From NCBI RefSeq assembly GCF_014284495.1, contig NZ_WJBE01000001.1: DNA of 24,000 nt. The stretch is one strand, 5' to 3'. This DNA is from Acetobacterium malicum (GTDB lineage: Bacteria; Bacillota; Clostridia; Eubacteriales; Eubacteriaceae). Both the position numbers and the translations under genes were made by a program. The notes beneath the pieces are model-generated. The model was not told the DNA's origin, did not search any database, and was given only the letters and a program-made list of their open reading frames with translations. This document shows, piece by piece, positions 1 through 20,394 of this stretch (position 1 is the first letter of the stretch; each line of letters opens with the position of its first letter).

Positions 1-1424
1 AGGCCGAATTGGCAAAAGAGAGTAAGCTGCTTGAAACAACTCTGGTTTCGGTGGGCGATGGGGTCATATCCTGTGATAAGGATGGTTATGTTTTATTTAT
101 AAATCGGGTAGCAGAGGACTTAACCGGCTGGACAAAAATTGATGCCTTAGGAAAACCCATTGAAACCGTATTCAATATCATCAATGATCTTAATCGGGAA
201 AAGGCTGGAAATATTGTCGCGGAAATCATTAAAACTAAAGAAATTAGAGAACTCGATAATCATACCCTGCTAATTGCCAGAGATGGTAGTGAACGAGCCA
301 TCGAGGACAGCGCTGCCCCAATAATTGAAGAAAATGGCGATGTGCTGGGTGTCGTTCTGGTGTTTCGGGATTATACCGAGAAAAAGCAGAAACTGGATCA
401 GATCGAGTATTTAAGCTATCATGATCAGCTCACCGGCCTTTACAATCGACGCTTCTATGAAGAAGAACTACGACGGATTGATACGCCAGAGAATTTACCC
501 TTGTCTTTAATTATGGGCGATGTCAACGGTCTTAAACTGGTAAATGACAGTTTTGGACATGTAATGGGAGACCAATTATTAAAAAAAGCCGCTGCGACGA
601 TTACCAGAGCCTGCCGCGCGGAAGATGTGGTGGCAAGATTGGGCGGCGATGAATTTGTTGTGCTGCTACCAAAAACAAATCAAATTGAAGCGGAAGAAGT
701 CATTGCACGCATTGAAGAATTGGCAAAAAGTGAAATAGTTGGAACCGTGGAACTTTCTATTTCATTCGGTTTTGAAACGAAGGTGGATAAGGAACAAGAC
801 ATCCAGCTGATTTTTAAAAGAGCAGAAGACTATATGTATCGTCGCAAACTGACGGAAAGTCTGGGAATGCGGAATAAAACTGTCGGTATGGTAATTGAAA
901 CCTTATTTGATAAATACCAGAAGGAAATGTTTCATTCGGAGCGGGTCAGTCGCCTGTCGGCTGAGGTTGGAAATAAAATCGGACTCAATACCAAAGATTC
1001 CCATGATCTCCAAACCGCCGGATTAATGCATGATATTGGCAAGATTGGGATTGCTGAGGGGATTCTCGACAAGTCAGAAAAACTGAGCGAACAGGATTGG
1101 CTGGAAATACGTCGTCACCCTGAAATTGGATACCGCATATTAAGCTCCGCCAACGAATTTGCTGAAATTGCCGATCATATCCTGGAACACCATGAGCGTT
1201 GGGACGGCAGCGGTTATCCCAATGGACTAAAAGGCGAAGAAATCTCGTTGGAAGCCAGGATTATTGCCATCGCTGATGCCTATGATGCAATGACCAGAAT
1301 GCGTTTGCATATGGATGATCTCACAGTTGAAGAAGCCATTGAAGAAATCAATCGCTGCTCCGGTACGCAGTTCGATCCCGAGATTGCCAGAGTTTTTATT
1401 GATATGATAAAAGACGAAAATTGA
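1..1424 (+). CDS. PAS-GGDEF-HD-GYP c-di-GMP turnover protein (5' end probably outside the window)
   Basis: The frame is open to the window edge, with no in-frame stop upstream of the TTG at 9. PAS-like N-terminus (VSVGDGVISCDKDGYVLFINRVAEDLTGW). GGDEF domain with intact RLGGDEF (GGDEF codons nt 642-656) and an RxxD I-site (RAED, nt 615-626) five residues upstream. C-terminal HD-GYP domain (HDIGKIG ... HHERWDGSGYP). Stop TGA at 1422-1424. Confidence 0.88.
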   Translation, partial: AELAKESKLLETTLVSVGDGVISCDKDGYVLFINRVAEDLTGWTKIDALGKPIETVFNIINDLNREKAGNIVAEIIKTKEIRELDNHTLLIARDGSERAIEDSAAPIIEENGDVLGVVLVFRDYTEKKQKLDQIEYLSYHDQLTGLYNRRFYEEELRRIDTPENLPLSLIMGDVNGLKLVNDSFGHVMGDQLLKKAAATITRACRAEDVVARLGGDEFVVLLPKTNQIEAEEVIARIEELAKSEIVGTVELSISFGFETKVDKEQDIQLIFKRAEDYMYRRKLTESLGMRNKTVGMVIETLFDKYQKEMFHSERVSRLSAEVGNKIGLNTKDSHDLQTAGLMHDIGKIGIAEGILDKSEKLSEQDWLEIRRHPEIGYRILSSANEFAEIADHILEHHERWDGSGYPNGLKGEEISLEARIIAIADAYDAMTRMRLHMDDLTVEEAIEEINRCSGTQFDPEIARVFIDMIKDEN

Positions 1425-5590: not shown

Positions 5591-7921
5591 ATGAAACATG
5601 AAAAGAGTTTGTTAGCAAAGATCCTGATGACAGTTGTTTTACCAGTAGCATTAATATTTGGTGCAATTGCAGCTATTGCAATGGTGGTGACAAGTCAGAA
5701 TGTTGATCAGTTTGCAAAGATTCAAAACAATTTGTTGCTGATTTATGTAATCGGTTTAGCTGTTATTGTTGGTGTAATTGTATTGGGAATGAAAGATACC
5801 TCAAACAGAATAACCAGCCTGGCAGAGGCCGCTAAACGGATGGCGGATGGGGACATTGAAGTTGGGTTAAGATCTGATAAGCCTCAGGATCAGTTGGGAG
5901 AAATTGCTTATGCGCTTTCATTACTGGCGGAAAATAATAAGACGCAGTCGGAAATTGCAAAAAAACTGGCAGATGGAGATCTGTCAGAAACGATCAGCCC
6001 ACTATCGGATAAAGACCGGCTGGGAAGTAATTTAGTTGCGGCTCAAAAGTCGATGAAAAAACTCCTCGATTATTTTGTTATGATGCCGGAATTGGTCGAG
6101 AAAAAAGTGTATTATGACAAAAGTGTAGAAAATGACTTAGCCGGTGATTATAAAAAAGCTCTTGGGCAGGCAAATCAGGCCATGGCGACAGTCACCACAA
6201 ATATGGAATATTATTTAGCAATTCTGGATGCTTTACCGTACCGGGTGACCACCACCGATAAAGACATGAAAATGGTTTTTGTCAACAAAATTCTTGAAGA
6301 TCTGATGAAAATGACCGGCACGGCCGAAAAACGGGAAGACATTCGCGGTATCGATTGTCATACCTGTAATCTGGAAATGTGTCATACTGAGAACTGCGGC
6401 GTGACAATGCTAAATGGCAATGGGGATCAATTGAATGAACTTGGCTATGCCGAATATCGCTTTGAATTCCGCGAACGATATTATCGGATGGATACGATGA
6501 ACCTCATCGACAAAAATGGTGAAAAGATCGGTTATGTAGAAGTATCCCACGACACAACACCGGTAATGAGTGTAAATAATTATCGCAGCAATGCGGTAGT
6601 CCGACTGGCGGACAACCTGCATCGCTTATCGGAGGGAAATCTTGATCTTGATTTACATGTCGATGAACCAGGCCAGTATACTAATGAAGTGTATGCGCAA
6701 TTTAAAGCGATTGGAGATAGCTTGACGGAGGTGAAAAATACCATTGGCAATCTGATTGATGATGCAAGTATGCTGACCCATGCGGCAATTGATGGTCAGC
6801 TCGATGCCCGAGCGGATGAAACCAAATTCGCTGGCTCATGGCTGGAACTGATCAGTGGAATGAATGGTATTCTTGGTGAAATAGCGAAGCCGCTCCAAGA
6901 GGTCACGGATGTTATGGATGAGATTTCACAAGGGAATCTGAAAGTTACCGTAAACGGCTCTTATCGCGGGAGTTTTGATGAATTAAAACAGTCGGTTAAC
7001 TCAATGGGGAGCGGATTCAAAAAAATAGTAGGAGAAATTTCCACAGTAACCGAAGAAATCGGCAATGGAAATCTCAATTTGGAAAATGTCAGTTCCTTTG
7101 GTGGCGATTTCAATACGATTTCCGATGCTCTTAATACCATTATTGGAACGCTGAACTCGCTGTTGGGTGATATCAATCATGCTGCTGAACAGGTTAATGC
7201 CGGGGCCAATCAGGTCTCCGACAGCAGCCAGGCCCTGGCCCAGGGGTCGACTGAACAGGCCAGTTCGATTCAGGAACTGACTGCTTCGATTACCGAAATA
7301 GCTGACCAGACCAAGAATAACGCCGTCAACGCAAACAAGGCCAGAGAACTGGCTACCGATGTTATGGGTAACGCGGACAAAGGAAACCATCAGATGACCG
7401 AGATGCAGCAGTCGATGGTGGAAATCAACAAGTCATCGGAAGACATTTCCAAGATTATCAAGGTCATTGATGACATTGCCTTCCAGACCAATATTCTGGC
7501 GCTTAATGCGGCCGTTGAAGCCGCCCGGGCGGGACAGCATGGTAAAGGTTTTGCCGTGGTGGCAGAAGAAGTCCGCACCCTGGCCGCCCGTAGTGCTGAT
7601 GCTGCCAAGGAAACGACCGGCTTAATTGAAGGCTCCATCAGTAAGGTCGCCGAGGGGACAAAAATTGCCGATGAAACCGCCAGTGCCCTGGATGAAATTG
7701 TTGGCGGCATCGCCAAAGTTAACGATTTAATTGGCAACATCGCCACGGCATCCAATGAACAGGCGACCGGCATTGCTCAGATTAACATGGGTGTTGAGCA
7801 GGTTGCCCAGGTCGTTCAACAGAATTCGGCAACTGCTGAAGAAAGTGCAGCCGCCAGTGAAGAACTCTCCGGTCAATCGATCCTGTTAAAACAGATGATC
7901 GACCAGTTCCAATTGAGATAA
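5591..7921 (+). CDS. Methyl-accepting chemotaxis protein: TM hairpin, HAMP, Cys-rich PAS-like domain, poly-HAMP, MA domain
   Basis: RBS GAAGGAG upstream. Two TM helices are separated by only ~13 residues. HAMP-like segments follow ([43 protein letters not shown]). The canonical MCP signalling hairpin is present ([40 protein letters not shown]). Confidence 0.93.
7073..7921 (+). repeat. Near-identical 3' tract shared with the second MCP gene (copy A)
   Basis: Aligns without gaps to 9681-10529 at a constant offset of 2608. Positions 7271-7581 equal 9879-10189 with no difference over 311 bp. The flanks differ only by scattered, mostly synonymous substitutions. Confidence 0.9.
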
Positions 7922-8066: not shown

Positions 8067-8219
8067 ACTATCAATAATTAAATTATCCTGGCTGAATACC
8101 CTGGCTGTGAAGAGTAACAGCAACGAAATTTATATCGTTTAGTGGTATAATCCTTCCAAGAAGAGTGGTGACGAAAGAAAGAATTGCTTGATAAATAATT
8201 TAATCAAATGGAGGAAAGA

Positions 8220-10529
8220 ATGGAGCATGAAAAAAGTTTGCTGTCAAAAATCCTAATGACAGTTGTCCTACCGACCGTCCTGATTTTTTGCGTGACAGCA
8301 GGTATTTCAATGGTTGTCGTCAGTCAAAATTTCGACCAGTTTGGCGGTATCCAAAATAGTGTGTTGCTGATTTATGCCATCGGTATAGCGTTAATGGTTG
8401 GGGTAAGTGTAATCGGTGTAAAGGGAATATCGGATCGTTTAACTGGCCTGGCTGAGGCTGCTAACCGCCTGGCTGATGGAGAGGTTGAACTTGGTTTAAA
8501 AGTTGATAAACCTCAGGATCAGTTGGGGGAAGTTGCTTATGCACTTTCAGGTATTGCCAAGAGCATGAGATTACAGTCAGAAGCGGCTGGTAAACTGGCA
8601 AAGGGTGATCTGTCAGCAGCAATCATTCCGTCATCGGATAAGGATGTGGTTGGCAACAGTCTGCTAGAAGTCCAGTCATCCATTAAGATGATGAGTGATT
8701 ACCTGATACAACTACCCGAACTCGTTAAAAAGGAAGTGGATCTGAATAAAGTACAAGAAACTGAAATGATTGGCGATTATCAAAAAGGGATCGAACACGT
8801 CAATCAGGCGATCCAGATAGTAGCCGACAAACGCGATTTCTTCCAGGCGATTCTTGATGCGATGCCATACCGAATTACCGTTGTGGATAATGATTTGAAG
8901 TGGACATTTATTAATAAGACCCTTCAGGATCTGAGAATAGCAACCGGGCGCGAGGGCAGTCGCGAATCACTTTATGGTGATGACTGTTGTAAATCAAATC
9001 TGGACATGTGTAAAAATGAAGATTGTGGTGTCAAGGCGTACCGAAAAACAGGCCGAATTGAATTTCCGTTTGCATATCGTGGCGGATATTATCGTATGGA
9101 TACAACGCCGATTATTGACAAACAAGGTCAGACCATTGGCTATGTGGAAACTTCGTTTAACACAAGTGCAACGATGAGCGTCAACAATTATTCAGAAGTG
9201 GAAATTAATCGGCTGGCTGATAATTTAAGACGTTTATCAGCAGGAAATTTGGACTTTGACATGGATATTCAAGAACCAGGTGAATTTACTGGCGAGGTAT
9301 ATGAACAGTTTAAAGCGATTGAAACTAATCTGCGAGAAGTAAAAAATTCCATTGACAGCCTCATTGGCGACGCCATCATTCTGACAACGGCAGCAATGCA
9401 GGGAGACCTGGATGTTCGGGCCGATGAAACCAAATTCAGCGGTTCCTGGCAGGAGCTGATCAGCGGCATGAATGGCATTCTTAGCGTTATGGCAAAACCG
9501 ATGGAAGAGGTCGCGAATGTGATGGATGCCATTGCCAACGGCAATCTTGATGTGATGGTCGAAGGTTATTATCAGGGCAGCTTTGATGTCTTGAAACAGG
9601 CTGTCAATGAAATGGGAATTAACTTTAAAACTATTGTGACAGAGATTTCGACGGTTACCAGAGAAATAAGCAATGGGAACCTCAATTTGGAAAATGTCAG
9701 TTCCTTTGGTGGCGATTTCAACGCGATTTCTGACGCGCTCAATACTATTATTGCGACATTAAACTCGTTGTTGGGTGATATTAATCATGCCGCTGAGCAG
9801 GTTAATGCCGGAGCCAATCAGGTCTCTGACAGCAGCCAGGCCCTGGCCCAGGGTTCAACTGAACAGGCCAGTTCGATCCAGGAACTGACTGCTTCGATTA
9901 CCGAAATAGCTGACCAGACCAAGAATAACGCCGTCAACGCAAACAAGGCCAGAGAACTGGCTACCGATGTTATGGGTAACGCGGACAAAGGAAACCATCA
10001 GATGACCGAGATGCAGCAGTCGATGGTGGAAATCAACAAGTCATCGGAAGACATTTCCAAGATTATCAAGGTCATTGATGACATTGCCTTCCAGACCAAT
10101 ATTCTGGCGCTTAATGCGGCCGTTGAAGCCGCCCGGGCGGGACAGCATGGTAAAGGTTTTGCCGTGGTGGCAGAAGAAGTCCGCACCCTTGCCGCTCGAA
10201 GTGCTGATGCAGCCAAAGAAACGACCGGCTTAATTGAAGGCTCCATCAGTAAGGTCGCCGAGGGGACAAAAATTGCCGATGAAACCGCCAGTGCCCTGGA
10301 CGAAATTGTTGGCGGAATCGCCAAGGTTAATGATTTAATCGGCAACATCGCTACCGCATCCAACGAACAGGCGACCGGCATTGCTCAGATTAATATGGGT
10401 GTTGAGCAGGTTGCCCAGGTCGTTCAGCAGAATTCGGCAACCGCCGAAGAAAGTGCTGCCGCCAGTGAAGAACTCTCCGGCCAATCGATCCTGTTAAAAC
10501 AGATGATTGACCAGTTCCAGCTGAGATAA
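8220..10529 (+). CDS. Methyl-accepting chemotaxis protein, paralog of 5591-7921
   Basis: Same architecture as the first MCP. I chose the start ATG at 8220 (MEHEKSLL, aligning with MKHEKSLL of paralog 1) because GGAGG at 8210-8214 lies 5 nt upstream. The last ~280 aa are identical to paralog 1 apart from two substitutions (T/A and G/A) just inside the tract, whereas the sensor half is far more diverged by eye. Confidence 0.93.
9681..10529 (+). repeat. Near-identical 3' tract shared with the first MCP gene (copy B)
   Basis: Counterpart of 7073-7921; see that feature. Confidence 0.9.
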
Positions 10530-10560: not shown

Positions 10561-10587
10561 CCACCTTTTAATAAGGTGGCTTTTTTT
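10561..10587 (+). terminator. Rho-independent terminator of MCP gene 2
   Basis: CCACCTT / AAGGTGG stem with loop TTAAT, followed by CTTTTTTT and preceded by an A-run. Confidence 0.75.
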
Positions 10588-10602
10588 AGAAGGAAGATCA
10601 CC

Positions 10603-11937
10603 ATGAATCGATTAATTGCGAAACTGATACTTTTTACTGACTCAAGTCAGGAGCGTCTGCTTAAGCAGATGGGACAGCTCTATGAGCGTTTTTATCAAGG
10701 TGCAGATACCAGAGAAAGCCTGATTGCCGAAAGTTATCGACAAATAAAAGCACTGCTGGAAATTGCCACTGATTTTGGCTTTGATCGAAACCTCTGGCAT
10801 CATTACCTGACCTTTTTACTGATAACGAATGAAAACCCATTCAGTTTAACTTGTGAAAAGGTGGGGAAAAAAGAGGGCAGTGTTAACTTTTTTGCTCAAA
10901 ACGACTGCAAAATTTTTAAAGAGCTCTTTGATTTTGATTTCACCGAATTGGAATCAGCACTGGGAATTGATTGTTTCACCCGGGTTTCAAATTACCAGGC
11001 CATCAAAAAACCGGAATTTATGTACAATCAGAATGTCAGTGAAAAGGTGAAATCACTGAGTCTGAGATTAGCGGCTGCCGCAAACGAACAAGTATTTTTC
11101 GACGAAATCACGCAGTTCTATGGCGAATACGGAGTGGGTATGTTTGGATTGAACAAAGCCTTCCGGATCATTCCCAAAGTCGATAACACCGGAGTTATCT
11201 TTAACCCCATCAATAACATGGATAAGGTCATGCTGGCAGATTTGGTGGGATACGAAAATCAGAAACAAAAGCTTGTCGAAAATACCAAAGCCTTTGTTGA
11301 GGGACGAAAAGCCAACAATGTCTTGTTGTTTGGCGACAGCGGTACCGGTAAGTCCACCAGTATCAAAGCCATCGTCAACGAATTCTATCATCAGGGATTG
11401 CGGATGATCGAAATTTACAAACATCAATTTCGGGATTTATCAAATGTCATTGCCCAGATTAAAAACCGCAACTATCGGTTTATTATCTATATGGATGATC
11501 TTTCTTTTGAGGAATTTGAAATTGAGTACAAATTTCTGAAAGCTGTCATTGAAGGTGGCGTGGAAACAAAACCCGACAACATTTTGATTTATGCCACTTC
11601 AAATCGTCGCCATCTGATTCGCGAAACCTGGAACGACCGAAATGATATGGAAGCAAATGGCGAGATCCACCGCTCCGATACCATGCAGGAAAAGCTGTCG
11701 CTTGTCAATCGTTTTGGAGTCAGTATTTTTTATGAACGACCCAGTCAGAAACAGTACTTTGGCATCGTCGCCGAACTGGCCAGGCGGGAAGGCCTGAACA
11801 TCTCAGAAGAAGTTCTTTCCGGTGAGGCTAATAAATGGGAATTGCAGCATGGCGGAATTTCTGGCCGAACCGCCCAACAATTCATCAATCATTTGCTTTC
11901 TGTCGCTTCAGAGGAAAATTTAATGGATAAATGTTAA
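10603..11937 (+). CDS. DUF815-type P-loop (AAA-like) ATPase
   Basis: Walker A motif LFGDSGTGKST and Walker B-like IIYMDDLSF. The C-terminal half is typical of DUF815 ATP-binding proteins, and the N-terminal ~220 aa is helical and unassigned. I chose the start ATG at 10603 (MNRLIAK) because GAAGGAAG lies upstream. The GTG at 10576 lies inside the terminator stem. Confidence 0.75.
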   Translation: MNRLIAKLILFTDSSQERLLKQMGQLYERFYQGADTRESLIAESYRQIKALLEIATDFGFDRNLWHHYLTFLLITNENPFSLTCEKVGKKEGSVNFFAQNDCKIFKELFDFDFTELESALGIDCFTRVSNYQAIKKPEFMYNQNVSEKVKSLSLRLAAAANEQVFFDEITQFYGEYGVGMFGLNKAFRIIPKVDNTGVIFNPINNMDKVMLADLVGYENQKQKLVENTKAFVEGRKANNVLLFGDSGTGKSTSIKAIVNEFYHQGLRMIEIYKHQFRDLSNVIAQIKNRNYRFIIYMDDLSFEEFEIEYKFLKAVIEGGVETKPDNILIYATSNRRHLIRETWNDRNDMEANGEIHRSDTMQEKLSLVNRFGVSIFYERPSQKQYFGIVAELARREGLNISEEVLSGEANKWELQHGGISGRTAQQFINHLLSVASEENLMDKC

Positions 11938-12004: not shown

Positions 12005-12171
12005 TTGGCCTAATCTGCGTAAATTTTAGTAAGTTGGATATGAATAAAGTAAAGGGTATTAAGATTAATAAGGATTACAAATGAAAATCCATGGCTGGCA
12101 TACACAAAGCTGCGCAGCTTGAAGAATTTGGACTGATATTAACTGGAAGTGAAAAGAACAGGAGAAAGAAA

Positions 12172-13842
12172 ATGAAAATTAAATTTTTAGGAGCGGCACT
12201 ATCCGTAACTGGTTCCTGCCATCTGGTGACGACCGATCACTGTAAATTCCTCCTGGACTGCGGTTTGTTTCAAGGCAGTGAAGCCCTGGAAGAATTAAAC
12301 TATCAGGAGTTTGATTTTAATCCGGCAGAAATTGATTTTATAATTTTGAGTCATGCTCATGTGGATCATTGTGGGCGCATTCCCTTACTTGTCAAGCAGG
12401 GGTTCAAAGGAAAGATTTATTGCACCGGGGCAACCGCTGAAATAGCCGACATCATGCTTCAGGACAGCGGCAATATTCACGAAATGGATGCGAAATGGAT
12501 CAACAAACGCACCATCCGTTCTGGAAAGCGGCAGATTGCTCCACTTTACACCCAGGCAGATGCTGCCCGTTGTAGCCAATATTTCTTTCCGGTGGCATAT
12601 GGACAAACTTTTGAGATCAATCCTTGGATCAAGATCCGGCTCAATGAAGCAGGTCATATACTGGGGGCAGCAATCATTGAAATTTGGGCTGAAGATGACG
12701 GAAAAACCACCAAGCTTGTTTATTCAGGGGATATTGGGGCTGCCAATCAGCGGATGCTCAATAATCCGACTCTGATTGCAGCGGCTGATTATCTGATTAT
12801 GGAAACGACCTATGGGGATCGTGTCCATGAAACCCAACAGGAAAGTGGGAAACGTTTTCTGGATATCATTTTTAAAACCGTTGCACGGGGTGGAACTGTG
12901 GTGGCACCTGCCTTTGCTTTGGGACGAACCCAGGATCTGATCCATGAGCTGGAGCTGTTTTATGATAACCATGAACTACATCAGAATCAGCTTGATAAAG
13001 TCAATGTTTATGTTGACAGTCCGCTGGCTACCGATGCCACCGAAATTTTTCGGAAAAATGCCCACTATTTTAACGATAAAATAAAGGCGCGAATCAAAAA
13101 AGGTGAGGAGCTTTTTTATTTCAGAAATCTTTATTTTACCAAAAGCATCGATCAATCCAAGGCGTTAAACGATGATCCGGCACCTAAGATCATCATTTCA
13201 TCCAGTGGCATGGCTGATGCCGGCCGGGTTCAACATCATCTCAAGCACTATCTCTGGAAACCAAAATCGAGCATTGTTTTTGCTGGCTATCAGGCAGAGG
13301 GAACCACTGGACGGGCAATTACCAGCGGCGAAAAATATGTCCGGATCCTCCGTGAACGGATTCGTGTGAATGCGGAAATCTATTTTCTTGAGGGGTTCTC
13401 TGCTCATGCCGATAAAAATGATCTGCTCAAATGGTTGTCCGGGTTTAAAGAAAAGCCAAAGAAAATCTTTCTGGTACATGGGGAAGAAGAGCCAAAAAAA
13501 ATATTTGCGGAAACAGTCAAAAATATTCTCGGGTATGATTGTACAATCGTGGAAGATGTATCCGAATATGTTCTTGGAGAAGCTGAAGAAGTTGTTTGTG
13601 ATGGCATAAAAAGTCGGATTGATACAAAAAAACAACTGCTTCAAATAAAAACCAATTTACAAGATATGTCTGATGAGCTGGACTCGCTTTTGTCTGAGCC
13701 AGGTATGAAAACAAAAGAAATACTTACAAAAGAGAAAGTTGAAGATATTTCCGATCTTTCAAGTGACCTTGAAAAGATCCTGACGAAACTTAAATCAGTG
13801 GTTGGCGAAAAAGATTTGCAACAAGAAGAGAAAACGGATTGA
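12172..13842 (+). CDS. MBL-fold beta-CASP family hydrolase (CPSF/RNase J-like RNA-metabolising nuclease) with an acidic coiled-coil tail
   Basis: RBS AGGAGA before the ATG at 12172 (MKIKFLGA). Metallo-beta-lactamase motif HAHVDHCG. Beta-CASP/RMMBL-type C-terminal motifs (GFSAHAD, LVHGE). The last ~90 aa are low-complexity and Lys/Glu/Asp/Leu-rich. Confidence 0.8.
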   Translation: MKIKFLGAALSVTGSCHLVTTDHCKFLLDCGLFQGSEALEELNYQEFDFNPAEIDFIILSHAHVDHCGRIPLLVKQGFKGKIYCTGATAEIADIMLQDSGNIHEMDAKWINKRTIRSGKRQIAPLYTQADAARCSQYFFPVAYGQTFEINPWIKIRLNEAGHILGAAIIEIWAEDDGKTTKLVYSGDIGAANQRMLNNPTLIAAADYLIMETTYGDRVHETQQESGKRFLDIIFKTVARGGTVVAPAFALGRTQDLIHELELFYDNHELHQNQLDKVNVYVDSPLATDATEIFRKNAHYFNDKIKARIKKGEELFYFRNLYFTKSIDQSKALNDDPAPKIIISSSGMADAGRVQHHLKHYLWKPKSSIVFAGYQAEGTTGRAITSGEKYVRILRERIRVNAEIYFLEGFSAHADKNDLLKWLSGFKEKPKKIFLVHGEEEPKKIFAETVKNILGYDCTIVEDVSEYVLGEAEEVVCDGIKSRIDTKKQLLQIKTNLQDMSDELDSLLSEPGMKTKEILTKEKVEDISDLSSDLEKILTKLKSVVGEKDLQQEEKTD

Positions 13843-13899
13843 TAATCGGGTAAGATCATTTTTACAAGCAAATGAATAATGAAAAACACTCAGGAGGGT

Positions 13900-14703
13900 A
13901 TGATGAACAAAAAGTTTCAGGAAGCTGATGACAAATTAAAGGCTCAAATTCTTGACCAGATACCAGCCCCGGTCATGGCAGTTAATAAAGAACTGATAGT
14001 GATCTATATGAATGAAGCTGGCAAAAAATTAATAAAAAGAAGTGCAGAGGATATTATTGGAATTGCCTGCAAAGATATAATCTGCACCGATCAGTGTGGA
14101 ACTGACGATTGTGCCATGCTAAAAGCGATGAAGTCAGGGAAGACCTATGCTTCCCGAACCGAAGCAACCTTAGGCGGGCAAACGATTCCTTTAGAGTTTT
14201 CAGCAGTACCTCTGGTTGATGATAGCGGAGAGATCATTGGTGGCCTCGAATTTGTCTTGGACATTACAGAGCGAGTTCTATATGAGAATCGTCTCAAAGA
14301 ACAAAACCATACAATCCGAGAAATGTCCACACCGACAATTAAATTATGGGAAGGTGTTATGGTATTGCCGGTTGTGGGTGTTGTTGACTCAATGAGAGCT
14401 CAGCATATGATGGAAAGCATGCTGACAAAAATCGCTGAAACGTATGCAAAAGTAATTATTTTGGATATTCACGGTGTTGCAGCCGTGGATACGGCCGTAG
14501 CCAATCATTTGATTAAAATAACAAAAGCAACTAAATTGATGGGGTGTGATTGTATTTTGTCGGGAATTTCACCTGCCGTGGCGCAAACAATCATCCAATT
14601 AGGAATTGATATGGAAGCGATCAACACCCGGGCAACACTCAGTGATGCTTTGACTGAAGCATTTTTAATGTTAAATCTGGAAGTGAATAAGAAAAAACAG
14701 TGA
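13900..14703 (+). CDS. RsbR-like stressosome scaffold/sensor: Cys-rich PAS N-domain plus STAS C-domain
   Basis: RBS AGGAGGG before the ATG at 13900. N-terminal PAS-like fold with C-x4-C-x3-C-x4-C (nt 14068-14112). The C-terminal STAS domain has RsbR hallmarks (MSTPTIKLWEGVMVLPVVGVVDSMRAQ, LDIHGVAAVDT, SGISPAVAQTIIQLGID). Thr is present at the positions I align to the RsbR phospho-acceptors (VDT and AQT). Confidence 0.85.
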   Translation: MMNKKFQEADDKLKAQILDQIPAPVMAVNKELIVIYMNEAGKKLIKRSAEDIIGIACKDIICTDQCGTDDCAMLKAMKSGKTYASRTEATLGGQTIPLEFSAVPLVDDSGEIIGGLEFVLDITERVLYENRLKEQNHTIREMSTPTIKLWEGVMVLPVVGVVDSMRAQHMMESMLTKIAETYAKVIILDIHGVAAVDTAVANHLIKITKATKLMGCDCILSGISPAVAQTIIQLGIDMEAINTRATLSDALTEAFLMLNLEVNKKKQ

Positions 14704-14736
14704 AATAATATTTTTGATGGGAATAGGTTGAAAGTA

Positions 14737-15093
14737 ATGGGAGAAGACTATAATACATCCGTAACCGTGATAAAAAATAACCTGATTGTGGCATTTCCAG
14801 CAGAAATGACGGATTCGTGTATTCAAAACATCGAAAAAACAATTATTGATAAAACCTATCAGAAGAATATTCGGGGAGTACTTCTTAATTTTTCAATGGT
14901 GACTGTTATGGATACATATACATACCAGGCTTTTGAAAACATTACAAGGGTATTTTCATTGATGGGGATTCAGACAATCTGGGTAGGTTTGAATCCCGGG
15001 GTAGTTTTTGGTTTGATTGACTTGGACGTTGCGATTAATATAAGAATAAAAATGGCAATTAATCTTGAGATTGGTTTAACGTTGCTCAATTAG
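14737..15093 (+). CDS. RsbS-like single-domain STAS protein
   Basis: A ~118 aa STAS-only protein immediately after the RsbR-like gene. MVTVMDTYTYQAF aligns with the DxxS/T phospho-site loop of RsbS/SpoIIAA-type proteins. Start uncertain: ATG at 14737 or TTG at 14728. Confidence 0.75.
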   Translation: MGEDYNTSVTVIKNNLIVAFPAEMTDSCIQNIEKTIIDKTYQKNIRGVLLNFSMVTVMDTYTYQAFENITRVFSLMGIQTIWVGLNPGVVFGLIDLDVAINIRIKMAINLEIGLTLLN

Positions 15094-15117: not shown

Positions 15118-15594
15118 ATGATGAAAATATCTGATGTATGTTTAACAAAAGAAATTAGCGAAAGAGTCAGGGTCAGAGAAACAAAAAAAATAGATCTTGT
15201 TTTTAGCCACGATAATGAGAACGTGGTTTATTCTGTTCGTAGTATTGCTAAAAAAGCTGGATTTCGTTTAACGGATGAGGTGTTAATAGCCGTAGCTGCT
15301 TCGGAACTATCGACAAATATTTTACGGTATGCTGGAACAGGCATAATTGAAGTAAGTATTGTTACCGATGAAGTCAGCCAGGCCAATGGGATTGAACTGT
15401 TTGCAAGCGATAAAGGACCGGGGATCAATGATATTGAACAGGCATTAACGGAAAACTACAGCTCACAGACAAATAGTTTGGGACAAGGTCTTCCGAGTGT
15501 GCAGCGAATCATGGACGAGTTCTATATCGAATCGGTTTCAGGCAAAGGAACGCGAGTGCTGACACGTAAATGGGTGGGATATGGAGAAAATTGA
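15118..15594 (+). CDS. RsbT-like GHKL serine/threonine kinase (anti-sigma regulatory factor family)
   Basis: N-box ASELSTNILRYAG, G1 box SDKGPGI, G2-like SLGQGLPSVQRIMDEF, and the typical small size (158 aa). Confidence 0.85.
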   Translation: MMKISDVCLTKEISERVRVRETKKIDLVFSHDNENVVYSVRSIAKKAGFRLTDEVLIAVAASELSTNILRYAGTGIIEVSIVTDEVSQANGIELFASDKGPGINDIEQALTENYSSQTNSLGQGLPSVQRIMDEFYIESVSGKGTRVLTRKWVGYGEN

Positions 15595-16168
15595 ATATGC
15601 AATGATACTCCGAGCGCTGCTGTGGGATGTTTCAGAATGCGGTGATCTCGGATATATTAAAGAATATGATAATAAGTGCTTTGTCTGTTTGATTGACATT
15701 CTTGGTCATGGCAAAATGGCAAGAAGTATTGCAGTTAATGCAGAAGAATATCTTGAAGCCAATTATCAACGCAACCTCATTGACGTCATGAACGGTCTCC
15801 ATAAACATTTATATGGTAGTAGAGGCGGAGTTGCCCTAATGTGTCGCCTGGATATACCAGCTGGGAAACTTCAGTATACAGGAATTGGTAATGTCACTGG
15901 AAGAGTAATCGGTTCCAATCAACATCGGATGCTTTCAAAAGATGGAATCGTGGGATTTGGAAGGATTAGTCCAATTATTCGAGAATGTGATTTTTCTGAT
16001 CGCGATCTCCTGATTCTCTATTCTGATGGTATTAAAGAGCACTTCAATTTGCTTGACCATTTGGCATTATTTACTGGCGAGACGGAATCAATCGCAAGTG
16101 GTGTTCTTAAAGAATTTGGCAAAAAAACTGATGATGCTTGCTGTATAGCGTTAAAGTATATTAAATAA
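15581..16168 (+). CDS. RsbX-like PP2C/SpoIIE-family phosphatase
   Basis: The metal-binding motifs CGD...DILGHG and ILYSDGI match small RsbX-type PP2C phosphatases. Size is 195 aa. It overlaps the RsbT-like gene by 14 nt. Confidence 0.8.
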   Translation: MEKIEYAMILRALLWDVSECGDLGYIKEYDNKCFVCLIDILGHGKMARSIAVNAEEYLEANYQRNLIDVMNGLHKHLYGSRGGVALMCRLDIPAGKLQYTGIGNVTGRVIGSNQHRMLSKDGIVGFGRISPIIRECDFSDRDLLILYSDGIKEHFNLLDHLALFTGETESIASGVLKEFGKKTDDACCIALKYIK

Positions 16169-16189: not shown

Positions 16190-19100
16190 ATGATCGAATT
16201 GGGTCATACACGGGTCGATAGTAATATTTCTTTGATCGAAGCAAGAAAAAAAGCAAGACATATTGCTTTAAAATTAGGATGTTCCGAAATTAAGGCAGCC
16301 CGAATTGAAGCAGTTTTATCGGAAATGATTCGGCAGTTGCTTAATGACACAAATATGGTTGACTGTATTATTTCAGTCATAAAAAACCAGGATAAAGAAG
16401 GCATTAATATCGCATATGATAACCTGGAGGTACCGTTTAGCTTGAATTGTGCTGAAAAATATGTGAATCCGTTTGAAATTCACGAAAAGCCGGATGGAAA
16501 ATACTTGGTAAATGTCTTTTTTCCTTTCATAACAGTCGAGCCAGATTTCTGTGAGAGCCTCGTCGAAGAAATTCGTATTGAAATTGAGTCACCGACAAGG
16601 GCAGAGTTACTCAAAGAAATTGAGGAAAAGAACAAAGAATTGGCGAGTAGCAGAGAGTTTATCGAATCAGTTCTGGAAAATTTACAGGCTGCAGTTTATG
16701 CAAAAGATTTAAATGGGAAATATACATATATTAACAAACAATGGGAAACGGTAACGGGGATTGATCGAGATGCCTGCATCGGAAAAACGGCGACGGACAT
16801 ATTCAGACCAGATCTTGGTGAAGCGTATGAAGAAAATGATCTCAATGTTATTAAATCAAAGAAAATTCAGATAATCGAAGAACACTCTAATCGGGAAGAA
16901 AACACACAAACCTATTTATCCACAAAAGTACCGATGAAACAGAATGATGATATTATCGGACTTTGTAGTATTTCTACAGATATCACTCAACGAAAAATTA
17001 TGGAAGAAGAGCTTTATAAAGCAAAAAAAACCGCTGAAGAGGCGGCCAAGTCCAAGTCCGATTTTTTGGCAAATATGAGCCATGAAATAAGAACCCCCAT
17101 GAATGCCATACTCGGAATGAGTTATTTAATGGAAAAAACTGATCTGTCCGAAAAACAGAAAGACTATCTCGGAAAAATAAGGTTGTCGGGGCAGCATTTG
17201 TTGGGTGTTATTAATGATATCCTGGACTTTTCAAAAATTGAGGCAGGGAAACTGGATATTGAATGCATTGATTTTAAATTATATGAGGTTTTGGATAATT
17301 TGTCCAATTGTATTAGTGAAAAATGTATGTCAAAAGGTTTGGAACTTGTCTTTGATGTTAATTCGAATGTTCCTAACGAACTATGTGGCGATCCGCTGCG
17401 AATTGGACAAATCCTGATTAACTATGTCAACAACGCCATAAAATTCACGGAACAAGGTGAAATTATTGTCAGAATAAGGAAAGAAGAAACGTTAGCCCAA
17501 GGATTTTTGTTGAAATTTGAAGTTCAGGATACCGGAATCGGCTTGACAACAGATCAGAAAGCTAAGTTATTCCAGTCTTCTCAACAAGCTGATACCTCGA
17601 CCACACGAAAATACGGTGGAACGGGATTGGGACTGGCTATTTCAAAAGATCTGGCGGAATTAATGGGTGGCGAAGTTGGTGTGGAATCAGAATATGGTAA
17701 AGGCAGTAATTTTTGGTTTACGACCCATTTTCGTGTCTCCGGCAAAACGGAGCAATCAATTATCTCAAATGAAGGGTTGGAAAATTTACGTGTATTGGTA
17801 GTCGATGATAATAATCAGGCCCGAATGATTCTATCGGAGATGTTAAATTCCATGAGAATTCGGGTGGATGAAGCAGGGTCGGGTGAGCGTGCCATCGAAA
17901 TGGTTCAAATGGAAGATTTGCGCCAAGATCCCTACGAAATTGTCTTCGTTGATATGCAGATGCCAAATTTAAATGGCATTCAAACTGTTGAACGATTAAG
18001 TCACATCAAACTGAAAAGCCCACCCAAATATGTGATGGTCACTGCTTTTGGAAGAGAAGAAGTATTTTGTAAAGCAGAACGGGCGGGATTTGAACTGGTT
18101 ATGGTCAAACCGGTTAATCTTTGGGTACTGTACGAAACGATGATTAGAATTCTTGAAAAAAACCGACTGAATGAGACCGTCGAAAAAAAAGAAGTTGAGA
18201 CGACCGGTCAAAGGAAAATTTTACAGACAATTTCCGGGGCTAGAATTTTGTTGGTGGAAGATAATGAGTTGAACCAGATGGTTGCACTTGAACTACTTAA
18301 AGAGGCCGGACTGATTGTAGATGTGGCAGAAAATGGTCGGATTGCCGTGGAAATGGTGGCTGAAAATGAATATGATCTGGTTCTGATGGATATGCAGATG
18401 CCGGTACTGGATGGGCTTGAAGCGACCAGGCGGATTCGTTCAGATAGTCGATTTGCGGAACTGCGGATAATTGCGATGACTGCCAATGCAATGGCAAATG
18501 ATCGCGAACGTTGTATCGCTGCCGGAATGAATGACCATTTGCCTAAACCGATTGAACCGAATCATTTGTTTGAAATACTAGCGCATTGGATACCATCAAG
18601 AACAAATATTAATGTTTCAGATGACTGTATCGGTGATACTGATGATGCGGTTTTTCCAGAAGCGGAATTAAACATCAGAATCAGTGGTCTGGACGTTGAA
18701 TTGGGTCTACGGCGGGTTCTCGGTAAGAAAAAACCGTATCTAAATTTGCTGAGAAAATTTATGGCCGGACAACCGAGTTTCATAACAGACCTGGATCAGG
18801 CAGTCAGCAATGGCGATTATACCACCGCTGAGAGGCTTGTCCATACATTAAAAGGGGTATCTGGGAATATTGGGGCAATCGAAATAAGAGAAACGGCAAC
18901 GATTCTTGAGACCGCAATCCGTGAACAACCAAGTAAGGATACATTAAGACCGCTCATTAAAAATCTGGCTACGCAGTTAAAAAAGCTGACTGAATCATTG
19001 CAAACGGCGTTGCCAAAAGAAAAAAAAGCTGTTGACGACAGCGATACTGCTTCCACGAAGGTTGAACTAATACGTTTTTTAGAAGAACTTATGCCGGGGA

Positions 19101-19276
19101 TTCAAACACGGAAACCAAAAAAATGTCTCGATGTTCTTGAAACTTATCGTAAATTTTTATGGCCAGATGAAAGCGAAATCGAAGTCGCTGAGATCTATCG
19201 ACTTGTTTCCAAATATCGATATAAGGAAGCCGCTGAACGCGTAAATTCCTTATTAATCAAATTAAGTGAGGTTTGA
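16190..19276 (+). CDS. Hybrid sensor histidine kinase: degenerate RsbT-like N-domain, coiled coil, PAS, HisKA, HATPase_c, REC, REC, Hpt
   Basis: RBS GAGGTAGAG upstream. H-box [14 protein letters not shown] with His298 at nt 17081-17083. N/G boxes ([27 protein letters not shown]). Two receivers retain the acidic pocket, phospho-Asp, Thr and Lys (VVDDN...FVDMQMP...VTAF...VKP; LVEDN...LMDMQMP...MTAN...PKP). Hpt motif [12 protein letters not shown]. Confidence 0.92.
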
Positions 19277-19278
19277 TT

Positions 19279-20394
19279 ATGAAGAAATTGTCAGAGTGTA
19301 ATATTCTAATCGTCGATGATACAGAAATGAATATTGACATATTGGTTGGTGCGCTGGGAGACGACTATGAACTGTCAGTGGCAATGGATGGGGAAGCTGC
19401 TCTCGAAATGATGGAAATGGAGCTTCCCGATTTAATCTTACTGGACATCATGATGCCAGGATTGAGTGGCTATGAAGTTTGTGAAAAACTTAAAAATAAT
19501 CCCAGAGCGAAAGAAATCCCGATTATTTTCCTGACTGCGATGACTGACATCGAAAGTAAAACAAAAGGGTTTGAAGCTGGGGCCGTCGATTATATTACCA
19601 AACCATTTGAAATACTGGAAGTCAAAGCACGGGTACAGACCCATCTGTACATCACGATTGCAAAAAAAGAGTTAGCTCTGCAGAATGAAATACTTGAGCA
19701 ACGGGTTATAGAACGAACGGAAGAATTGTGCCTGACTCAGGAAATTACCATTGAAGCGCTAGCCTCACTGGCTGAATATCGAGATCCGGATACGGGGGGA
19801 CATATTTATCGTACCAAAAATTATGTAAAAATTCTGGCTGAAAAACTAAGTTCCGTTGAAAAATATAAAAATATTCTAAATGAGGAAGTCATCAAAATAT
19901 TTTACAAGTCGGCACCACTCCATGACATTGGCAAAATCGGTATTCGCGACGAAATTCTTCTAAAACCAGGTAAGTTGACCGTTAAGGAATTTGAAGAAAT
20001 GAAAAAACATACTTTGATTGGTTATAATGCTCTTCGAATTGCGTCATTAAAGCTTGGTGAGAATTCATTTTTGAAACATGCCATGGAGATTTCAAAAAGT
20101 CATCAGGAAAAATGGAATGGGACCGGCTATCCGGATGGTTTGTCTGGCGATGATATCCCCATAGCTGGGAGAATCATGGCGATTGCGGATGTGTATGATG
20201 CACTCATCAGTAAGCGGATTTATAAACCGCCATTTACGCACCGGCAGGCGGTCGTGATTATTAAAGAAGGCCGGGGTATTCATTTTGATCCGCTGATGGT
20301 TGATGCTTTTGAAGATGTTAATGAAGAATTCCGGCAAATTGCGATTAAATATGCCGATTGTGATGAGGAACGAGTGACTTTAAATGAAGTGTAG
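19279..20394 (+). CDS. Response regulator with HD-GYP c-di-GMP phosphodiesterase output (RpfG-like)
   Basis: REC domain (ILIVDDTEMN...LILLDIMMPG...LTAM...TKP) followed by HD-GYP (HDIGKIGI...HQEKWNGTGYPDGL). The ATG at 19279 starts 2 nt after the kinase stop, with AAGTGAGG as RBS. Confidence 0.9.
   Translation: MKKLSECNILIVDDTEMNIDILVGALGDDYELSVAMDGEAALEMMEMELPDLILLDIMMPGLSGYEVCEKLKNNPRAKEIPIIFLTAMTDIESKTKGFEAGAVDYITKPFEILEVKARVQTHLYITIAKKELALQNEILEQRVIERTEELCLTQEITIEALASLAEYRDPDTGGHIYRTKNYVKILAEKLSSVEKYKNILNEEVIKIFYKSAPLHDIGKIGIRDEILLKPGKLTVKEFEEMKKHTLIGYNALRIASLKLGENSFLKHAMEISKSHQEKWNGTGYPDGLSGDDIPIAGRIMAIADVYDALISKRIYKPPFTHRQAVVIIKEGRGIHFDPLMVDAFEDVNEEFRQIAIKYADCDEERVTLNEV

Follow-up and report, generated by a model that had tools for sequence, protein, structure and literature searches.

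A cysteine-triad PAS domain on a stressosome RsbR and on chemoreceptors of Acetobacterium malicum: a candidate iron–sulfur sensor module

A stretch of 24,000 nucleotides from contig NZ_WJBE01000001.1 of Acetobacterium malicum (assembly GCF_014284495.1), referred to below as the window, encodes an RsbR-like protein (13879–14703) in which a PAS domain is joined through a Jα linker to a STAS domain, as well as two methyl-accepting chemotaxis proteins (MCPs), MCP1 (5591–7921) and its tandem paralogue MCP2 (8208–10529). These genes, like the stressosome genes described further below, lie on the plus strand. Each of the three proteins has a tight cluster of cysteines within a PAS domain. The initial annotation of the window read the clusters as a common four-cysteine sensor, through which one signal would coordinate motility and behavior dependent on cyclic di-GMP (c-di-GMP). 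Our analysis suggests that the conserved unit is a triad of cysteines rather than a set of four, and we lean towards an iron–sulfur (Fe–S) cluster as the cofactor that it binds.

The RsbR-like gene was delimited from the list of open reading frames (ORFs) and from Pfam matches to PAS_4 and STAS. Since its homologues are 266 residues long and an AGGAGG lies just 5′ of 13900/13903, translation probably starts at the ATG at 13903 (M9 of the ORF, whose numbering is kept here). The PAS domain (13951–14277, ORF residues 25–133) matches Pfam PAS_4 with 63.9 bits (1.9e-17, cut-off 23.1), and in an AlphaFold2 (AF2) model of the protein with a mean predicted local distance difference test score (pLDDT) of 84, the N-domain shows the PAS topology of two β-strands, helices, and three β-strands. 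When the whole model was submitted to Foldseek, the top match was full-length YtvA, which has the same succession of PAS, Jα, and STAS (E = 1.8e-16). The STAS domain (14347–14649, residues 157–257) is recognized by Pfam and by phmmer, in which the linker and STAS region match chain 7o0i_B, the RsbR of the Vibrio vulnificus stressosome, with 1e-46, whereas Listeria RsbR, at about 1e-27, is much more distant. Foldseek likewise matches the model to stressosome chains, with 56% identity to one 7o0i chain. Furthermore, S171 (14389–91) and T205 (14491–93) align with the threonines of the IDTER and VVDTMV motifs of Listeria RsbR, positions that we take to be the RsbR phosphorylation sites targeted by RsbT. 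By these comparisons, the window RsbR belongs among the true stressosome subunits and is a near relative of the O2-sensing RsbR of V. vulnificus.

The cysteine cluster of RsbR, CKDIICTDQCGTDDC (14068–14112), has the form C-x4-C-x3-C-x4-C in translation, and the initial annotation had taken it for a Cys4 site. Conservation counted over 180 non-redundant members of the RsbR family tells a different story for one of the four. C64 (14068–70) and C73 (14095–97) are kept in all 180 sequences and C78 (14110–12) in 179, but C69 (14083–85) is a lineage-specific addition found in 15, and no cysteine beyond the triad is present in the A. woodii orthologue; we therefore consider the conserved unit of the RsbR type to be C-x8-C-x4-C, a triad whose fourth partner is movable. 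An extra cysteine beside a triad cysteine is found at position 65 in 34 of the 180 and at position 79 in 77, while 65 (36%) have none at 65, 69, or 79. Beyond the cysteines, a glutamate in the last strand, Iβ (E124, 14248–14250), is kept in 179/180 and is a candidate non-cysteine ligand or relay residue. Thr75 occurs in 162/180, His72 in 146/180 (81%; the window RsbR has Gln there), and an acidic residue at position 66, two after the first cysteine (C+2), in 134/180 (74%; D66 in the window). The gene neighborhood was examined in 80 related genome loci, and 79 of their 81 RsbR ORFs have the triad at its standard spacing, the two exceptions being a C-x8-C-x5-C variant in locus L046 and a short ORF of 169 residues. 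Hence, the motif is indeed conserved among RsbR-type homologues, as the initial annotation had supposed, though not in its four-cysteine form.

Both chemoreceptors place a module of this kind in front of their HAMP domains. MCP1 comprises two N-terminal transmembrane helices with a short loop, the Cys-triad PAS module (residues 207–326; 6209–6568), delimited by profile, AF2, and Foldseek, and then, as in MCP2, two HAMP_2 domains and the MCP signaling domain (Pfam MCPsignal). Its triad is C256, C264, and C269, with an extra C259 (cluster at 6356–6397). In MCP2 the module spans residues 211–323 (8838–9176; profile and alignment), and the triad is C260, C268, and C273, with an extra C261 (cluster at 8985–9026). 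The fourth cysteine accordingly occupies a different position in RsbR, MCP1, and MCP2. All four cysteines of MCP1, a protein of 776 residues, fall within one 14-residue stretch, as do four of the five in MCP2, a clustering far beyond chance. The MCP modules remain below threshold in Pfam (PAS_4, 19.8 and 17 bits), but an AF2 model of MCP1 residues 189–345 has PAS topology (pLDDT 82.9), and its top Foldseek matches are all PAS domains, with the Aer2 PAS-HAMP structure 3vol second-best. The initial annotation was correct in the coordinates of all three clusters, and its view that they sit at the same position of a PAS fold is supported by Pfam, the models, and the alignments. A c-type heme was considered for MCP1, where CNLEMCH (6365–6385) resembles CX4CH, and was rejected, as other family members do not preserve the motif and the module lies on the cytoplasmic side of the two-helix anchor; the resemblance is probably a coincidence. 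As regards the history of the pair, the last ~270 residues of MCP1 and MCP2 are identical (93–100% at the DNA level per 100 nt), while their Cys-PAS sensors are only 34–44% identical, and two contigs from metagenome-assembled genomes (L001 and L002, ~90% DNA identity to the window) carry one MCP each, with an MCP2-like sensor in L001 and an MCP1-like sensor in L002. Either a duplication with sensor swapping or a collapsed assembly could account for the pattern.

A profile built from the two MCP modules was run by exhaustive HMMER search against 1.84 billion representative proteins and returned 745 matches at E ≤ 1e-3, 321 of them at E ≤ 1e-10; the MCP-type profile therefore describes a discrete family, not PAS domains in general. 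With the family's hidden Markov model (HMM), MCP1 and MCP2 score 107 and 98 bits. The top 150 proteins contain 216 instances of the module; C-x6-9-C-x4-C is found in 213, and the first spacing in 212 distinct instances is x7 in 198 and x8 in 13. The triad stands alone in 26% of the modules, 68% have one or two further cysteines 16–21 residues downstream, and an inner extra cysteine, as in MCP1 and MCP2, is seen in 9%. The conservation of the Iβ glutamate is 0.93. Up to five copies occur in tandem in one protein. In 139 scanned proteins, the outputs were the MCP signaling domain in 96 (usually with HAMP_2 arrays) and HisKA in 5, and two MCP-type proteins combine Cys-triad modules with protoglobin; of 131 scanned members, 73 match PAS_4 and 92 HAMP_2. 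On the RsbR side, the best 120 matches of a full-length search are all PAS-STAS proteins of ~266 residues with 57–98% identity, the nearest named ones among them being from Acetobacterium, and a relative is encoded in 115 stretches of species-representative genomes. A word-indexed search had recovered one truncated protein with the RsbR N-domain alone and six with the MCP sensor region, which reflects a limit of the index and not rarity, because the full-length and exhaustive searches recovered the families. The Cys-triad module is unstudied, not rare.

Are the RsbR and MCP modules one family? Pairwise BLASTP aligns them with their cysteine clusters in register (E = 7e-9 and 5e-7), as do MAFFT and profile alignments, and all three clusters end in C-x4-C-(G/A). 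Compared as families by hhalign, the RsbR N-domain and the MCP-type module align over 106 columns (Prob 99.8, E = 2.3e-29), and deletion of the Cys region from both alignments still leaves E = 4.9e-23. The MCP-type HMM gives 65 bits to the window RsbR and a median of 69 bits to the RsbR family, against 20 and 12.5 bits for the window's pair of ordinary PAS domains. In a joint alignment, N45, G61, C64, C73, C78, G121, and E124 are invariant, and C-x-T-x-x-C is common to both types. In addition, RsbR-type x8 modules are also present in poly-HAMP MCPs beside x7 modules (85–107 bits with an HMM of the RsbR N-domain). Three observations weigh against a close relationship: the window MCP modules are just 25–28% identical to the window RsbR module, the first spacing differs by one residue, and the narrow RsbR N-domain HMM scores MCP1 (30 bits) and MCP2 (24 bits) no higher than the cysteine-free PAS of the hybrid kinase described below (28 bits). 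Even so, we consider it very improbable that the modules are related only as generic PAS domains with convergent cysteine clusters and no common sensor module, given the clear separation by the MCP-type HMM, the profile alignment that survives masking of the motif, the presence in both of C-x-T-x-x-C along with the invariant asparagine, two glycines, and glutamate, the occurrence of x7 and x8 subtypes in tandem within the same MCPs, and the small number of proteins that the MCP profile matches. Rather, the comparisons indicate a single superfamily of Cys-triad PAS domains that is divided into an RsbR-type (C-x8-C-x4-C) and an MCP-type (C-x7-C-x4-C) subfamily. The kinship beyond generic PAS similarity that had been proposed is thus borne out; the further idea that the same module serves chemotaxis and stressosome outputs stands insofar as fusions to both exist, but the RsbR and MCP modules of the window belong to different subfamilies.

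The position of the triad in the fold is suggestive. C64, in helix Eα, aligns with the adduct cysteine of the light-oxygen-voltage (LOV) domain of YtvA, in the GKNCRFLQ motif, and the other two cysteines lie in the loop immediately before helix Fα of the RsbR model; the triad is therefore predicted to line the canonical cofactor pocket of the PAS fold. YtvA, a LOV-STAS stressosome paralogue of Bacillus subtilis (2mwg), resembles RsbR in its PAS, Jα, and STAS architecture and in the coincidence of the first triad cysteine with the LOV cysteine, but differs in its GXNCRFLQ motif and flavin-binding residues, neither of which the modules described here possess; these have two more invariant cysteines and an invariant glutamate. 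A LOV or flavin sensor was accordingly dismissed: the NCRFLQ motif is missing, only G-x-x-C is common to the family, whose consensus reads GKxCxDxFxSxHC. When the sequences in the Protein Data Bank (PDB) were searched with single sequences and with profiles, no structure containing the triad turned up, the best matches to the joint profile being the Aer2 PAS (4e-6), NifL, and PF0695. Aer2 of Pseudomonas aeruginosa and Vibrio (3vol, 4hi4) has, like the MCPs of the window, a PAS domain among HAMP or HAMP_2 domains ahead of the MCP signaling domain, and its PAS sequence aligns mainly over the first two strands (A and B). It holds heme b through a histidine in Fα, whereas the modules described here have the cysteine triad and apparently no heme ligand pattern.

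Where taxon names exist, the Cys-triad PAS was seen here only in anaerobes. All 80 loci come from anaerobe lineages, namely Clostridia, Thermotogae, Spirochaetes, Desulfobacterota, Fibrobacteres, Victivallales, and Bacteroidales. Three of the ten clusters of MCP-type proteins that were looked up carry names (Methanospirillum, Methanomassiliicoccales, and Holophaga), so that archaeal chemoreceptors, those of Methanospirillum and Methanomassiliicoccales, also have MCP-type modules (e.g., P0127 and P0231). In the survey of output domains that the initial annotation had called for, the fusion partners of the module were STAS domains, Aer2-like poly-HAMP MCPs, and histidine kinases. Some RsbR-type members (P0020 and P0021, 416 residues) have an N-terminal hemerythrin followed by the Cys-triad PAS and STAS, and therefore unite two candidate O2- or redox-sensing domains on one RsbR.

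A 2023 survey of the PAS family gives NreB as its only Fe–S example (PMC10468136). The nearest analogues that have been characterized are found in OrpR and NreB. The PAS domain of OrpR, a σ54 activator of Desulfovibrio vulgaris Hildenborough, binds a redox-sensitive [4Fe-4S] cluster and has the motif C52-x8-C61-x3-C65 together with D/E54 (PMC8359166). As far as the motif description goes, OrpR resembles the RsbR module in coming from an anaerobe and in having three conserved cysteines, a first spacing of C-x8-C, and an acidic C+2 residue; in both, the triad would lie in the same region of the fold, with a fourth ligand that is either not a cysteine or unassigned. The second spacing differs (x3 in OrpR, x4 here), as does the output, an AAA+ σ54 activator instead of STAS or an MCP, and in the MCP modules no acidic residue stands at C+2. 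NreB of Staphylococcus carnosus is an O2 sensor with a [4Fe-4S] cluster and the motif C-x2-C-x11-C-x2-C, and NreB of Bacillus licheniformis is a sulfide sensor with C-x2-C-x11-C, in which a [2Fe-2S] cluster is held by three cysteines and a labile sulfur ligand (PMC13478379). In NreB, as proposed for the Cys-triad family, a cytoplasmic PAS domain binds the cluster through cysteines of the Eα/Fα region, and the combination of three cysteines with a labile fourth ligand in the B. licheniformis protein is the pattern that the variable fourth position suggests for the Cys-triad family. However, NreB has an entirely different spacing, a histidine kinase output, and facultative Bacillota as hosts. 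The PDB search with the joint profile gave no NreB match, and an NreB-type motif, C-x2-C-x11-C(-x2-C), is ruled out by the C-x7/8-C-x4-C spacing found here.

We infer from these comparisons that the Cys-triad PAS holds an Fe–S cluster, and with it the signal, which may be O2, a redox shift, or a small molecule, and the direction of the response. We hold this to be somewhat more probable than not, and it is the best supported reading because of the cysteine triad in the pocket, the variable fourth ligand, the restriction to anaerobes, the hemerythrin and protoglobin companions, and the two three-cysteine precedents. In the RsbR type, the fourth ligand might be His72, or Cys65, Cys69, or Cys79, and in the MCP type a downstream or inner cysteine; Glu124 or Asp66 may possibly serve as well, or else an exogenous ligand. 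The invariant asparagine, the two glycines, and the Iβ glutamate complete the signature. Three cysteines would suffice, since the triad occurs without a further cysteine in the proportions of both subfamilies given above, as in the three-cysteine Fe–S PAS domains. Several facts tell against an Fe–S cluster. The spacing of x8 or x7 followed by x4 is exactly that of none of the three characterized Fe–S PAS motifs, and the Cys3-His set of most RsbR types is typical of zinc sites too. Moreover, the glutamine in place of His72 deprives the window RsbR of this ligand, and the A. woodii protein has no candidate for a fourth cysteine or histidine there.

The main rival is zinc, for which Cys3-His is a well-known combination of ligands. 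According to this alternative, a zinc ion would be bound by the triad and a further residue, be it His72, an extra cysteine, or Glu124. The site would be either structural, stabilizing the Eα/Fα loop, or a zinc-thiolate redox switch that would give up its zinc upon oxidation and functionally resemble the ZAS anti-sigma factors, Hsp33, or the chemoreceptor zinc-binding (CZB) domain. The frequency of Cys3-His in RsbR types and of C65 or C79 fits such ligand sets, both subfamilies tolerate a variable fourth ligand, and the spacing is unlike that of known Fe–S PAS motifs. Yet a restriction to anaerobe lineages is not expected of a zinc site, a quarter to a third of the members have three cysteines only with no conserved fourth ligand apart from Glu124, joint zinc binding by His72 and the adjacent Cys73 would be geometrically awkward, and the Cys-triad PAS domains that have been characterized bind Fe–S clusters. 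We therefore judge a zinc site unlikely, though well worth keeping in view. Less probable still is a metal-free thiol switch, in which an oxidant would bring about reversible disulfide formation, persulfidation, or nitrosylation. The close grouping of invariant cysteines in a sensor found in anaerobes would be compatible with it, and ArcB, whose PAS domain has redox-active cysteines, sets a precedent, but two cysteines would be enough for such a switch, whereas three are invariant at fixed spacing in both bacteria and archaea; in addition, movable fourth ligands are better suited to a coordination site, and the invariant buried glutamate would be left unexplained.

The genes downstream of rsbR would offer a route for the signal of an Fe–S RsbR. 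The window RsbR is followed by RsbS (14728–15093), a single STAS domain, an RsbT-like serine kinase (15118–15594; HATPase_c_2), and an RsbX-like PP2C/SpoIIE phosphatase (15581–16168; Pfam SpoIIE), which are found in 77, 77, and 71 of the 80 related loci, respectively. Next come a hybrid histidine kinase (16190–19276), in which an N-terminal region of ~150 residues precedes an ordinary PAS, HisKA, HATPase, two REC domains, and Hpt, and a response regulator with REC and HD-GYP domains (19273–20394; Pfam Response_reg and HD_5), a predicted c-di-GMP phosphodiesterase. A histidine kinase is present in 74/80 loci, and the most common order is RsbS-RsbT-RsbX-kinase-response regulator. The kinase is presumed to be the target of RsbT. 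Its N-terminal ~150 residues (16190–16640) match no Pfam family, RsbU_N included, yet the domain is conserved in 42 related loci, which makes it a candidate docking domain for RsbT. In two Desulfovibrionaceae loci (L063, 12348–15491, and L045, 12310–15477), the hybrid kinase has a C-x8-C-x4-C PAS of its own, with the conserved glutamate, and the Cys-triad module is therefore found twice in one pathway. The link to c-di-GMP drawn by the initial annotation is strengthened by the finding that a gene matching HD-GYP lies on the RsbR strand in 39/80 loci. A second c-di-GMP enzyme, a PAS-GGDEF-HD-GYP protein whose PAS lacks the triad, is encoded at the left edge of the window (9–1424).

We propose that the Fe–S cluster would sit in the PAS pocket and be oxidized, converted, or removed by O2, a redox shift, NO, or sulfide, with a consequent change in the PAS β-sheet and the Jα linker. 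In RsbR, the change in the linker would alter the STAS core of the stressosome, and thereby the sequestration of RsbT and its kinase action on S171/T205 and RsbS. RsbT, once freed, would act on the downstream hybrid kinase, and the phosphorelay would control the REC-HD-GYP phosphodiesterase, while RsbX would reset the stressosome. In the MCPs, the module between the membrane anchor and the HAMP array would bias CheA, with a redox- or aerotaxis-like behavior as the outcome.

This layout has a close parallel in the stressosomes of V. vulnificus and V. brasiliensis (7o0i; PMC9237108, PMC4976288). There, the RSTX module with its heme-globin sensor is likewise coupled to a two-component system (PMC9237108). 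The linker and STAS region of the window RsbR is far closer to these proteins than to those of Bacillus or Listeria, and in both cases what comes after RsbR-S-T-X is not RsbU and σB but a two-component kinase with a PAS domain, along with a response regulator. The difference lies in the sensor, which is a heme globin in Vibrio and a Cys-triad PAS here, and in the hosts, which here are strict anaerobes. The initial annotation regarded a cysteine-bearing PAS as an unusual input for RsbR, and indeed the literature we searched contains no report of a Cys-triad or Fe–S PAS on a stressosome or an MCP, nor does a 2026 review of aerotaxis receptors mention an Fe–S or cysteine-based receptor.

That a single signal coordinates motility and c-di-GMP remains plausible as far as the class of cofactor is concerned, but conserved linkage and close similarity between the modules are both lacking. 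Cys-PAS MCPs adjoin the stressosome operon in 3/80 loci, all from the Acetobacterium clade, which speaks against a conserved functional coupling of the two as a general feature, and two unrelated genes lie in between; the proposed coordination is therefore not supported. The intervening genes, at 10576–11937 and 12091–13842, encode a DUF815 AAA ATPase and a β-CASP metallo-β-lactamase nuclease. The best NCBIfam match of the nuclease is the type VII CRISPR Cas14 model, with 420 bits (below the cut-off of 800). Both genes recur in only 3/80 loci, and we see no link to the sensor system.

What stressosomes sense is a long-standing question, and to our knowledge O2, which acts on the heme-globin RsbR of Vibrio, is the only input to have been defined. 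The locus described here is of a type that is conserved across many anaerobic phyla, with an obvious candidate cofactor site. More tentatively, we suggest that the Cys-triad PAS might be an ancient Fe–S module shared by anaerobes among the bacteria and archaea, its cluster being site-differentiated, with three cysteines and a fourth position that is open or exchangeable. It would supply strict anaerobes with a general input for O2, redox state, or small molecules (NO, sulfide) to stressosomes, chemotaxis arrays, and histidine kinases. If an Fe–S cluster is indeed bound, the family would about double the known kinds of Fe–S PAS domains and would contain the first Fe–S-based stressosome sensor and the first Fe–S-based taxis receptor. 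The movable fourth ligand would then tune what each paralogue senses, and its natural variants would form a series for studying how cluster coordination tunes sensing. The related module of the MCPs would represent a candidate class of receptors by which strict anaerobes and methanogens avoid oxidants.

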